64,000 nt of DNA from assembly GCA_045631185.1 (NCBI GenBank), contig JAZQUH010000039.1, forward strand, positions 139,740 through 203,739, given 5' to 3'. Positions 22,329-24,968 of this stretch are shown here, in pieces; within the stretch, counting starts at the first letter, position 1, and each line of letters begins with the position of its first letter. The position numbers were made by a program, and so were the translations under genes. Origin of the DNA: Alphaproteobacteria bacterium. GTDB lineage: Bacteria > Pseudomonadota > Alphaproteobacteria > CAAHEQ01 > UBA3637. The notes under the pieces were generated by a model. That model ran no database searches. It was not told the DNA's origin and was given only the letters and a program-made list of their open reading frames with translations.

Positions 22329-24968
22329 TTATCTTTCAGGGGCCGATAAGCGTGTAAGATTATTTGCCAAGTTATTTTGAAGTATTTGTTCTTTTCCTGC
22401 CTGACTTTGTGTGGCCAAAATATTATTTATTTTTTGCGGTGCATTTTGTGTCCGTATTTGTGCAACTTGGCTACGCAAAGATTGAACATCCAACACCATA
22501 CTTTGAAGATGTCTCAACAAATCATTCATTGAAAAAGGATTGTCTTTTTTAGGGGTATTTGTTTGTAAATCCATTTTTGTTTTTTTCAAATAACCTTGCT
22601 GATCAAATTTTTCATCTTTAGCTGGATAATTCTGATTAGATACTTCTTGCCCTTCATGATTGTATTGAATAACATAAGAGCCGTTTGTGGTATATTTTTC
22701 CCATTGGCGCATTTTACCATCAATCATAATACATTTTGTTTCACTTTTATCCGATTGTTCCGTTTCATGAATAATCGTTTGGCCGTCTTTTTGAAAGCGT
22801 TCACAAATAACATTTCCCAACTGTATTGTTTCCAATGCGCCGTTTTTACAAACACAACGATGATTATCATAAATTTGATCTGTTATTTTTAAAATATCCC
22901 TATCTAAGCCCATACTATCACACAGGTAATTCATATGATTTGATTGTCTTTGGCGTAAATTATTTCCTGTTGAAAATTGGCGTCGTGCCGTATATCGCAA
23001 ACTTTGATTTATTAAAAATTTTTTCCAATTGCTAAATTCTTCTTTTAACTCTGAATCTTTGCCTTTGTAATCTTTTCCACCCGTTAAATAAAGTCGTGCC
23101 ATTTGCGTTCGGGCGTTTTTTTCCGATTCTTCATCATCCATCCCCGAATCCAAACAAGTTTGTTTAAAAGATTGAAATAATAATGCCCGTGGCGAATCAA
23201 GCCCTACACTGGATTCGTAAAGTATATTTGTCATACGGGCACCTAACTCCTGCATTAAATTTTTCTTTGCGCCATCTTCCAATGATAGGCAAACATTTCC
23301 GTCTGGGTGATAATGCTGAATAACATGACGCATTTCATGTGCCAAAGTAGAAGTCGCCAAATGTTTTATAGAACTGATTTGTTTTGGATTATTTGTTCGT
23401 TCAATACTCTTGCTAAAACGGGATGACAATACGATTGTGCGGGGATTTTTTACATCAACATATCCATAGCCATCTGTTTTGTCTTCTTTTAAAATAATTT
23501 TACCGTGCTTTTCGGCAATCTTTTTTGCCTCCACCAATAATTCCTGCCCCACTTTTGTATCCAACAAAAGCTTTATTCTTTCATAGGCTGAAATTTTTTC
23601 CTGTAATGATTTTGCCTGAATTTCAAAAGGAAGATGAATCAAAGCCTCATCAATTTCCCGCTCTGAGTTCTGAAGATGCTTTAATAAATCATTCATTGAA
23701 AAAGGATTGTCTTTTTGAATCTTGTTACTTTTATTACTAATTCTTGCAATGGCTTCTTGAAGTGCATCGTGACCTGAACAATTAATGTCTGGTTTATGGC
23801 CTTTACCTTCAATAAATCCGTCATCAAAATCGTAAAACACATTGCCCATTTGAAGAGCACCACCACAGGGAAGTGCAATTCTGTTTACTTCACCATATTG
23901 GCAACATCCTTTTGTACTTTCCCCAATAAATTGAGTTCCTTCATATTGTTTAAAAAGCGGATAAACAAATTCAGCTGCCGATCCCGTTTCTTTATCCGTT
24001 AAAACAAAAACGCTTTGTTTACCATGATACTGTTTTGGAGTTCTTTTTTCTTGTGTATAAGGGGTATAATAAAATTGGTTTCTTAGGGTTGCTTCTTCGG
24101 TTTTTCGTGCTTGAGCTTCAACACAACTTGGAAGTTCTTCTTTAGAATCGCAAATTGTTTTGGCTATTTGCCTTAAATAATCAGGAACACCACCACCATT
24201 ACCACGTACATCCAAAATAATATTATCCCAATTTTCCATATTATTTTTTAAAGTTTTAATAATTTCTGAAAAAGCATGCCTTTGCGATTCTTCATTCGGT
24301 GTCCCCTGTTGAATCATACATGTACTAAGACCAATAACGCCGGTCTTTTTCCCATTTATTATCCGTTCAGCAATCACAAGTGGACCTGTTTGTAAATTAA
24401 AAACGCGAGTATATCTATCTTCCTTTCTAAAATCTGGCGAAAAAGCCAAATTTTTTCCAACTGTTCCTTTGGGTTCCGGACGATATTTTAATTTTGTTTT
24501 TTGATCAACGGGTTGGTAATAATGAATATCACCATTTGATTTTTGTTTCGTGGCAAAAACTTCTAAATGATTATCTTTCAACGGGCCGGCTATTTTATAA
24601 AGTTCCGCCAAAAGGTTATCACCCTTTAAACGTTTAGTTTCATCCATGGAAAATTGCTGGTTATAAAGGTTTTCAATTGATTGTTTAAAGTGGTCTTTGT
24701 CTTTTTTTAAATCAGGGTCTTTATCCCACTTTCCCCATCCAGGGTGCATTTGTGAAATTGCCCTTGCAAAATAGGAAATATTTTTTAACGTATCCATATC
24801 TGCTTTTTTTTGCAAGGCATCCACGGAAATTTCTTTTTCAATACCCCGCATCCATGTATTTATTTTTTCAGAAGGATACAAATTTTTTAATTGTTCATAC
24901 TGGCCACGCAAAAGAACTTCTTTAAATTCTCTTAGACTAATTCCTCTTATAATTTTATCAAAATTCAT
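22329..24968 (-). CDS. large two-module protein: N-terminal S41 (tail-specific-protease-like) peptidase plus C-terminal HExxH metallopeptidase-like module; candidate secreted effector
   Basis: S41 motifs ILDVRGNGGG and TGSAAEF. LAHEMRHVIQH in the second half. Each module ends with KDNPFSMNDLL(K/R)HLQ. No signal peptide. Confidence 0.6.
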   Translation of the reverse strand: MNFDKIIRGISLREFKEVLLRGQYEQLKNLYPSEKINTWMRGIEKEISVDALQKKADMDTLKNISYFARAISQMHPGWGKWDKDPDLKKDKDHFKQSIENLYNQQFSMDETKRLKGDNLLAELYKIAGPLKDNHLEVFATKQKSNGDIHYYQPVDQKTKLKYRPEPKGTVGKNLAFSPDFRKEDRYTRVFNLQTGPLVIAERIINGKKTGVIGLSTCMIQQGTPNEESQRHAFSEIIKTLKNNMENWDNIILDVRGNGGGVPDYLRQIAKTICDSKEELPSCVEAQARKTEEATLRNQFYYTPYTQEKRTPKQYHGKQSVFVLTDKETGSAAEFVYPLFKQYEGTQFIGESTKGCCQYGEVNRIALPCGGALQMGNVFYDFDDGFIEGKGHKPDINCSGHDALQEAIARISNKSNKIQKDNPFSMNDLLKHLQNSEREIDEALIHLPFEIQAKSLQEKISAYERIKLLLDTKVGQELLVEAKKIAEKHGKIILKEDKTDGYGYVDVKNPRTIVLSSRFSKSIERTNNPKQISSIKHLATSTLAHEMRHVIQHYHPDGNVCLSLEDGAKKNLMQELGARMTNILYESSVGLDSPRALLFQSFKQTCLDSGMDDEESEKNARTQMARLYLTGGKDYKGKDSELKEEFSNWKKFLINQSLRYTARRQFSTGNNLRQRQSNHMNYLCDSMGLDRDILKITDQIYDNHRCVCKNGALETIQLGNVICERFQKDGQTIIHETEQSDKSETKCIMIDGKMRQWEKYTTNGSYVIQYNHEGQEVSNQNYPAKDEKFDQQGYLKKTKMDLQTNTPKKDNPFSMNDLLRHLQSMVLDVQSLRSQVAQIRTQNAPQKINNILATQSQAGKEQILQNNLANNLTRLSAPER

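Follow-up and report, generated by a model that had tools for sequence, protein, structure and literature searches.

A readable recombination scar in a probable recent fusion of an S41-type and an HExxH peptidase gene in a reduced alphaproteobacterial genome

Introduction

We study one open reading frame (ORF), 879 codons long, in a 64,000-nt stretch of an alphaproteobacterial genome (contig JAZQUH010000039.1, positions 139,740-203,739; we call this whole stretch the window, and coordinates without a contig prefix are window positions). We think it likely that this ORF is a real, recent and lineage-restricted in-frame fusion, made by illegitimate recombination, of two genes that stand apart in each of the relatives found. 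In the scheme that we propose, the first part (module 1) would be a cytoplasmically made, PDZ-less serine peptidase of the S41 type that lost its own basic, Trp-rich C-terminal tail, and the second (module 2) would be a rare zincin-type peptidase with an HExxH site, natively ending in a DNPF..M.DLL..LQ helix and a Q/N-rich tail. A second, inner occurrence of the same motif would be a 46-nt copy of the native 3' segment of module 2, placed at the joint, and the fused gene would additionally have taken on a captured promoter fragment.

In bacteria with reduced genomes that depend on partners, effector-like genes are believed to evolve as catalytic cores and C-terminal delivery regions are shuffled. 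To our knowledge, such joints have rarely been observed. In the present gene they can still be read: three architectures (zincin-tail, S41-tail and S41-zincin-tail) occur at 96-98% identity in one species-level population, with microhomology at both joints. Judged by sequence comparison, genes have clearly been shuffled here and the recombination scar can still be read; the product is a candidate effector. The case also defines two poorly known protease groups: S41 proteins that lack a signal peptide and carry Cys where the catalytic Lys would be, a subfamily widespread in this order, and a rare zincin family without a solved relative.

The genome that carries the ORF (G000) is 0.99 Mb in size, 75.7% complete and about 38-39% guanine plus cytosine (GC). 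Its order consists of a single family with 80 species and genomes of 0.7-2 Mb, and our order-wide comparisons cover 80 genomes, among them a sister species (G019) and a congener (G003). These properties would fit the description of the order Rs-D84 and Ca. Enterousia, gut bacteria with reduced genomes that are thought to depend on partner cells (PMC12306168).

Results

Two modules that stand alone in relatives share one reading frame

The first-pass annotation of this DNA, made from the letters alone, had described an 879-aa ORF with S41 and HExxH landmarks, no Sec signal and a Q/N/R-rich tail after the second of two motif copies. All of this stands: the ORF is present on the minus strand, its translation contains IILDVRGNGGG, KETGSAAEF and LAHEMRHVIQH / TLAHEMRHVIQHYHPD, its N-terminus (MNFDKIIRGISLREFKE) is hydrophilic with no Sec-like segment, and Q and N make up 16% and 12% of the last 57 residues. 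That the gene is AT-rich holds in a mild form, and it is no compositional outlier: its GC content of 34.5%, against a mean of 39.5% (standard deviation 4.2) for long ORFs, lies at the 12th percentile, which rules out strong compositional foreignness.

The same annotation read the ORF as a fusion of two once-separate genes, and the homologues agree with it, since both modules exist in stand-alone form and the repeat lies at the joint. In G019, module 2 alone is encoded as a 455-aa protein, 89% identical, with its own start (MRDFSLKSDQEIDEAL) at the syntenic tsaB/rimI/tRNA-Pro locus. Sister strains hold stand-alone module 2 proteins of 452 aa (P0204, P0200 and P0196) that are 97-98% identical to module 2 of the window, P0204 being 98.4% identical overall and 100% in the tail. 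The S41 module is matched by 43 stand-alone proteins of 430-450 aa in a set of 5.8 billion proteins, eight of them at 68-76% identity. A third form, P0202 (490 aa), comes from another assembly, of a sister strain, and consists of the S41 module (96% identical), then IQK followed directly by DNPFSMNDLLRHLQ and the full tail; the HExxH module is missing. A HMMER search of 1.84 billion representative proteins found no full-length match to the fusion, only module 1 or module 2 proteins, and among the 19 members of its own 90% cluster the window protein is the sole fused one. Two metagenome scans (Joint Genome Institute, JGI) yielded nothing useful; two 38% matches over residues 395-460 lie in an unrelated 541-aa protein.

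Matches to the module 1 family occur in 35 of the 80 genomes of the order, and module 2 is very patchy (6 of 80 in the order, 2 of 21 in the genus), its family amounting to a handful of clusters among the 1.84e9 representatives. In the relative L033, whose neighbourhood was inspected, the S41 gene lies between pgsA and nusB; in G000 these two genes are on different contigs and the pgsA-S41-nusB synteny is broken. No paralogue of module 1, module 2 or the tail is present in G000. The pairwise ratio of nonsynonymous to synonymous substitution is 0.21 between module 2 and its G019 counterpart, and module 1 gives 0.13-0.17 with two orthologues; by this sequence measure both modules are under purifying selection.

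ORFs of about 970 aa with two tandem S41 modules occur in three other genomes of the order (G071:C30:68298-70091, G093:C4:88947-90710 and G042:C14:90644-92374; loci L019 and L024). By the structure of its genes, duplication and fusion recur in the S41 family that lacks a signal peptide.

The inner copy of the motif fills the joint

The joint is marked by a repeat. The DNA repeat of the first-pass annotation is real: it is a direct repeat of 46 nt with 42 of 46 positions identical, and we estimate that a 2.6-kb gene of this AT-richness would hold such a pair by chance with a probability of about 1e-11. We call the inner copy R' and the C-terminal copy R. DNA homology to the stand-alone S41 gene of G001 extends over 24968-23731 and that to the stand-alone module 2 gene of G019 over 23669-22323 (91.7%). 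Because the S41 homology stops at 23731 and the module 2 homology begins at 23669, the inner copy fills the joint exactly. Microhomology of 2-8 nt is found on each side: on the S41 side CAAAAA, shared with the sequence that precedes the native motif, and on the module 2 side TCTT(C/T)A or AA, shared with the 5' end of the stand-alone gene. R' differs from R at 4 positions and from the G019 copy at 9, and R differs from the G019 copy at 7; R' and R are thus nearer to each other than to the G019 copy, which points to a copy made within this lineage. In the structural model, residues 413-433, which include the inner motif, form a low-confidence linker (predicted local distance difference test, pLDDT, below 50).

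Which of the two genes the motif belongs to can be read from their relatives. Module 2 orthologues carry it about 70 residues from the end, where it leads into a conserved helix (G019, DNPFTMKDLLKRLQVMVQDVQSLR; the 54%-identical P0003, QNLIDMQSLLKRLKTLTAQVQSLR). In the tails of more than 40 stand-alone S41 relatives, including the eight at 68-76% identity, it is absent; these proteins (P0154, P0157, P0164, P0168, P0005 and others) end in a basic, Trp-rich tail, ..FPKWLQNPSWLWHRK, with the consensus ..TLQKTLSxGxKKGxxFPKWLQNPSWLWHRK; their last 25 residues carry on average a net charge of +4.75, where the genome background is +1.2. This tail is lost in the fused protein, and no remnant of it was found anywhere in this genome. 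By these comparisons the motif is native to the HExxH gene only, and the first-pass idea that both parents carried the same C-terminal tag finds no support in the form in which it was put. We would read the inner motif as a recombination scar or linker, and not as a second functional tag, because it copies a native 3' segment and coincides with the joint, where 2-8 nt of microhomology lie on either side.

Module 1 has an S41 fold and an altered active site

The two modules were modelled separately with AlphaFold2 (AF2), as a joint alignment with half-length homologues misaligned module 2. For module 1, the S41 protease fold expected by the first-pass annotation is borne out by three kinds of search, and we assign it with confidence on the basis of the model. 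Residues 228-396 match the Pfam family Peptidase_S41 (PF03572) at E 4e-19, with 69.2 bits against a cut-off of 24. Sequence-profile searches of the PDB give matches to classical processing proteases at E 1e-9 to 1e-7. The AF2 model, built from a 38-sequence alignment, reaches a pLDDT of 91, and its Foldseek neighbours include 4l8k, 8vcb, CPAF (3dor), CtpB and IRBP, at E 1e-13 to 1e-11, and the D1 protease; among the 50 matches listed (87 in total at E <= 0.001), the functionally named structures are all S41 or IRBP.

The alignment shows S330 (codon 23979-23981), H75, D132, H134 and D253/R255/N257/G259/G260 to be invariant and E387 to be nearly so; in the nucleophile motif G-S-A-x-E, S330 and E333 are invariant in 38 of the 38 sequences. 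Where 6vbb has its catalytic Lys (GEKSYGKG), module 1 has Cys355 (GESTKGCC), which lies within a conserved GCCQYG, and across the aligned family no conserved Lys was found at the S41A catalytic-Lys position. From S330 to E387 the spacing is 57 residues, with the invariant H75 and H134 upstream (positions in the alignment, not distances). CPAF and tricorn have a Ser-His-Glu site in which the Ser-to-Glu spacing is 58-59 residues. By analogy, the pattern of H75, D132, H134 and E387 recalls these sites, and Ser330 would then be paired with a His/Glu partner instead of Lys.

The best fold matches are the PDZ-less Bacteroidales S41 structures 4l8k and 8vcb and CPAF (E 1e-13 to 1e-12, template-modelling score, TM, 0.5-0.7), which share the DxRxNxGG and GSAxE motifs with module 1. 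However, identity to them is just 13-17%, the CPAF profile match has an E of 0.1, and unlike them module 1 lacks a signal peptide and has a conserved GCCQYG where the Lys loop would be, its own N-terminal helical domain and, in its family, a basic tail. The classical S41A enzymes Prc/Tsp, CtpA and CtpB resemble module 1 in the Pfam S41 domain, which scores above threshold, and in the profile matches, but module 1 differs from them in the Cys at the catalytic Lys position, in its lack of a periplasmic targeting signal and in having no PDZ domain (no PDZ match in the fused protein at E up to 10 in Pfam).

Module 2 is a zincin-like protein with an invariant HExxH site

In module 2 the residues expected of a zinc peptidase are strongly conserved and the fold is weakly matched, so that the expectation of a protease fold for the C-terminal half holds for the HExxH site, which is invariant, and is left weak for the zincin fold (E 0.045). 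Near homologues keep H544, E545, H548, Q551, H554, P555 and D556 invariant, with E574 invariant downstream; H544, E545 and H548 are kept in all full-length homologues, and the pattern HExxHxxQxxHPD plus E574 is near-invariant. The AF2 model, built from just four sequences, has a pLDDT of 82 (above 85 in the core) and shows, in order, the helical HExxH core, seven beta-hairpin strands, a disordered linker, a helix starting from the C-terminal motif, a second helix and a disordered end.

Among PDB structures, the M1 gluzincins ERAP1, IRAP and EryP match this model best (Foldseek E 0.045, probability 0.9, TM 0.25). Around the HExxH site, a match to the Pfam family DUF6782 (putative metallopeptidase) scores 18-21 bits against a cut-off of 27, and five of eight homologues match this family weakly (best E 1.8e-6). 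Like DUF6782 and the M1 gluzincins, module 2 bears its HExxH on a long helix, after which comes another helix containing an invariant Glu, and the weak matches are centred there; it differs from them in the sub-cut-off score, in a spacing compatible with metzincins, and in possessing a beta-hairpin repeat domain and a coiled-coil tail of its own. A PDB sequence-profile search returned a single kind of match, to the zinc site of ADAMTS-1, with which the HExxHxxxxxH spacing aligns only at E 2.2. As candidates for the third zinc ligand, H554 and E574 are both invariant in near homologues; the site would be made of H544 and H548 with either H554 or E574, and may be gluzincin-like or metzincin-like. 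We infer that both modules are active proteases.

The C-terminal region and the question of export

A VirB type IV secretion system (T4SS) had been attributed to this genome, correctly: VirD4 (C39:49635-51212), VirB4 (2624-5143, 839 aa) and VirB10 (C40:14513-15118) all score above their cut-offs, in scattered genes. We tentatively propose, with the odds somewhat against it, that the fused protein acts outside the cytoplasm on a partner cell and is exported via VirB/D4 through the C-terminal region of module 2. That the protein is an effector is plausible from its sequence.

The first-pass annotation saw a candidate translocation signal in the shared motif and suggested a search for other proteins ending in DNPFSMNDLL.HLQ. 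None came to light: in this 75.7%-complete genome motif and tail are confined to the fused ORF, and across the 80 genomes of the order they occur in module 2 orthologues alone, apart from one weak coiled-coil look-alike. The first-pass annotation had named a motif unique to this protein among the findings that would count against its reading, and that is largely what is seen. This uniqueness within genome and order leaves a general secretion tag unsupported; a gene-specific C-terminal module, for delivery or for oligomerisation, is possible on the sequence. The look-alike is an unrelated 381-aa protein of the congener (L038 562-1707, G003:C7) that ends ..LPTDMTALLEQLQLMRKEVHSIRTDVTQLRQSNAQL...MKR (E 4e-4); the Pfam matches of its tail are weak and to coiled-coil families only (ZapB, bZIP).

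Modular T4SS substrates with C-terminal signals are known: the Bartonella Bep proteins carry a BID domain and a basic tail, the Xanthomonas X-Tfe proteins an XVIPCD with a Gln-rich tail, and Agrobacterium VirE2 and VirF have Arg-rich C-termini. The present family is like them in combining varied catalytic N-terminal parts with a conserved C-terminal region, here with a Gln-rich tail and VirB/D4 in the genome, and in the apparent tail swap between unrelated cores in P0202. It differs from Bep, X-Tfe and VirE2/VirF proteins in that no sequence relationship to them was found (Pfam gave no other match at E up to 10), its tail is not basic and the motif is confined to one gene lineage. Searches of PubMed Central and bioRxiv returned no paper on DUF6782 and none of relevance to S41 proteins as T4SS effectors.

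Several results weigh against an exported dual protease. The last 25 residues of the fused protein have a net charge of +1, where the background mean is +1.2, and are not basic; the motif is found in this gene alone in the genome, and the gene is not beside T4SS genes. As to activity, module 1 is missing the catalytic Lys (Cys355), so that its activity is not assured, and for module 2 the fold match is not significant and the DUF6782 score is under its cut-off.

It may also be that the protein is no effector at all. On this account, possible although we would not call it probable, the two modules are intracellular or envelope proteases with housekeeping or regulatory roles, motif and tail serve coiled-coil oligomerisation, the Trp-rich S41 tail is a membrane-binding helix, and the fusion is a neutral or mildly useful accident. 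The predicted helical tail, the similar congener tail with its weak matches to coiled-coil families only, the background-level charge, the lack of linkage to T4SS genes and the native locus of the S41 orthologue among the housekeeping genes pgsA, nusB and nrdR are all in its favour. Against it stand two patterns typical of accessory, interaction-related genes in reduced genomes: the very patchy occurrence of module 2 in a variable tRNA-flanking region, and an S41 family that is expanded, duplicated and fused in several genomes without the export signal that classical S41 enzymes need. What hangs on the choice is plain. If the tail is a T4SS signal, it could help to find out how these uncultured gut alphaproteobacteria act on their partners; if it is not, the gene is an ordinary, if neat, example of gene fusion.

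P0202 and the order of events

The route by which the fusion arose turns on P0202, in which the first joint (..KIQK/DNPF.., the slash marking the joint) recurs in an independent assembly. P0202 may be a parent form, the product of one R'/R crossover, or an assembly shortcut (k=31) over a 31-nt exact match. We weighed the possible orders of events around it unequally, one receiving somewhat more than half of the weight, another about a third and the last a small remainder, without tying these shares to the readings named here. A route in which the fusion came first needs one rearrangement fewer than a route from a tagged S41 parent.

Some points speak against the fusion as we reconstruct it. 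R' is 8.7% diverged from R, while the stand-alone module 2 of sister strains is 98% identical, so that R' could derive from another allele, or from an older S41-motif-tail gene like P0202, and not from the fusion event. The fused form, moreover, is found in one assembly only.

An alternative, which follows the first-pass annotation, has two tagged parents, S41-motif-tail and HExxH-motif-tail, with the same ~72-residue tag serving as a T4SS signal; a deletion between the parents, lying in tandem, would have taken out the tail of the first gene and the beginning of the second. P0202 is exactly S41 plus motif plus tail, from an independent assembly; R' (KHLQ) is nearer to the C-terminal-site alleles of P0193, P0198 and P0016 than the R of the window is, and its 8.7% divergence from R suggests a separate history; if P0202 is real, an unrelated core received the tail of module 2 in place of its own, as a portable signal predicts; and the genome has a T4SS. 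However, more than 40 other S41 relatives lack the tag and share another tail, making the tag on the S41 gene itself secondary; P0202 could be obtained from the fusion by one R'/R crossover, or by the k=31 shortcut; one extra rearrangement is needed compared with the fusion-first route; and the tag occurs in no other protein of the genome and, in the order, in module 2 orthologues only. On balance we consider two tagged parents unlikely.

A broader version, which we rate as less likely again, is that the ~72-residue motif-plus-tail is a portable C-terminal delivery or targeting module that moved, within one species, onto an unrelated S41 core, replacing its own basic tail, and that the fused form is a dual-protease VirB/D4 effector delivered into a partner cell. 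If it were true, nature would have swapped tails among the three architectures as in an experiment, and a new kind of T4SS signal would be defined by them. If P0202 is real, the exchange of its S41 tail for this one is the best hint that tails are interchangeable.

It is very improbable that the contig of this metagenome-assembled genome (MAG) wrongly joins stand-alone S41 and HExxH genes through the repeated motif: a repeat does lie exactly at the joint, the fused form is known from one MAG only, both stand-alone forms exist at 96-98% identity and chimeric public contigs do occur (P0201, with a ruminant-like repeat by eye), but the 4 differences in R' exclude a second pass over R, the joints ..KIQK/DNPF.. 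and ..HLQ/NSEREIDE.. hold sequence absent from both parent forms, the microhomology of 2-8 nt is far under any assembler k, the frame is open through both joints, the first joint recurs in P0202, and the contig is 207 kb long with ordinary genes on either side.

P0201 itself (469 aa, ENA, same 90% cluster) is a stand-alone HExxH protein whose tail switches after ..IRTQNA to ..GPGSIPGWGTRTHMLQLKIPYTATKTW. By eye this tail looks like a translated ruminant interspersed repeat, which would make its contig chimeric and would hint that the lineage lives in ruminants.

Expression signals and the variable region beside tRNA-Pro

The positions of the modules, repeats and neighbouring features are collected in Table 1. 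The Shine-Dalgarno (SD) and promoter-like sites of the fused gene lie downstream of the nfeD terminator. On the minus strand, 25003-25063 is a partial copy, about 60 nt long, of the 3' end of dnaE (..G(I/V)AEIKQA and stop) together with the TTGAC promoter that follows it, with 79% identity to G000:C39:108243-108304 (E 1.3e-7). From this resemblance the promoter of the fused gene looks captured, a further sign of patchwork assembly. At the dnaE side, the promoter precedes a 366-aa Cys-rich ORF for a secreted protein.

Table 1. Positions in the window of the fused gene, its parts and the features next to it
Feature	Position	Strand	Basis
Whole fused ORF, 879 aa plus stop	22329..24968	-	ORF translation; sole 879-aa member of its own 90% cluster
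Module 1, residues 1-418, PDZ-less S41-type peptidase without signal peptide	23715..24968	-	Pfam, alignment, AF2/Foldseek, DNA homology
Inner repeat copy R', residues 419-433, KDNPFSMNDLLKHLQ, at the fusion joint	23671..23716	-	Repeat, ends of DNA homology
Module 2, residues 434-807: helical zincin-like domain (~434-697), then beta-hairpin repeat domain (~704-781)	22548..23669	-	DNA homology, AF2
Zinc-site motif HEMRHVIQHYHPD, residues 544-556	23301..23339	-	Alignments of homologues
C-terminal repeat copy R, residues 808-822, KDNPFSMNDLLRHLQ (...RHLQ), native copy, start of predicted helix	22504..22549	-	Repeat, AF2
Q/N-rich C-terminal tail, residues 823-879, predicted helices then disordered end ...TRLSAPER	22332..22502	-	AF2, composition
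Expression signals: SD AAGAGGA 5 nt before ATG; promoter-like TTGACT-17-TAGACT	24972..25063	-	Sequence inspection
Hairpin, 18-nt arms, 2-nt loop, between the convergent fused gene and 168-aa ORF	22235..22272	.	Inverted repeat
AT-rich islet (30.8% GC) with 168-aa membrane ORF 21702-22208	21490..22323	+	Absent from the orthologous G019 locus
tRNA-Pro(TGG)	21105-21181		tRNA gene beside the fused-gene region

At the other end of the gene, the hairpin is likely, from its sequence, to be a two-way terminator, and neither the islet nor its 168-aa membrane ORF has a match in Pfam or PADLOC. The first-pass annotation had also remarked that the gene lies next to tRNA-Pro, and it does lie in a variable region beyond that tRNA gene. 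Here the DNA past it (21183-22323) comprises a 0.8-kb islet, then the fusion gene; in G019 (L002, G019:C16) the HExxH gene, an outer-membrane protein gene and metG follow, and in the congener (L050, G003:C8) a Dam-like DNA methylase. The region looks like a variable hot spot. Elsewhere in the window, 3' of VirB4, a 602-aa ORF without a clear family occupies 5177-6985.

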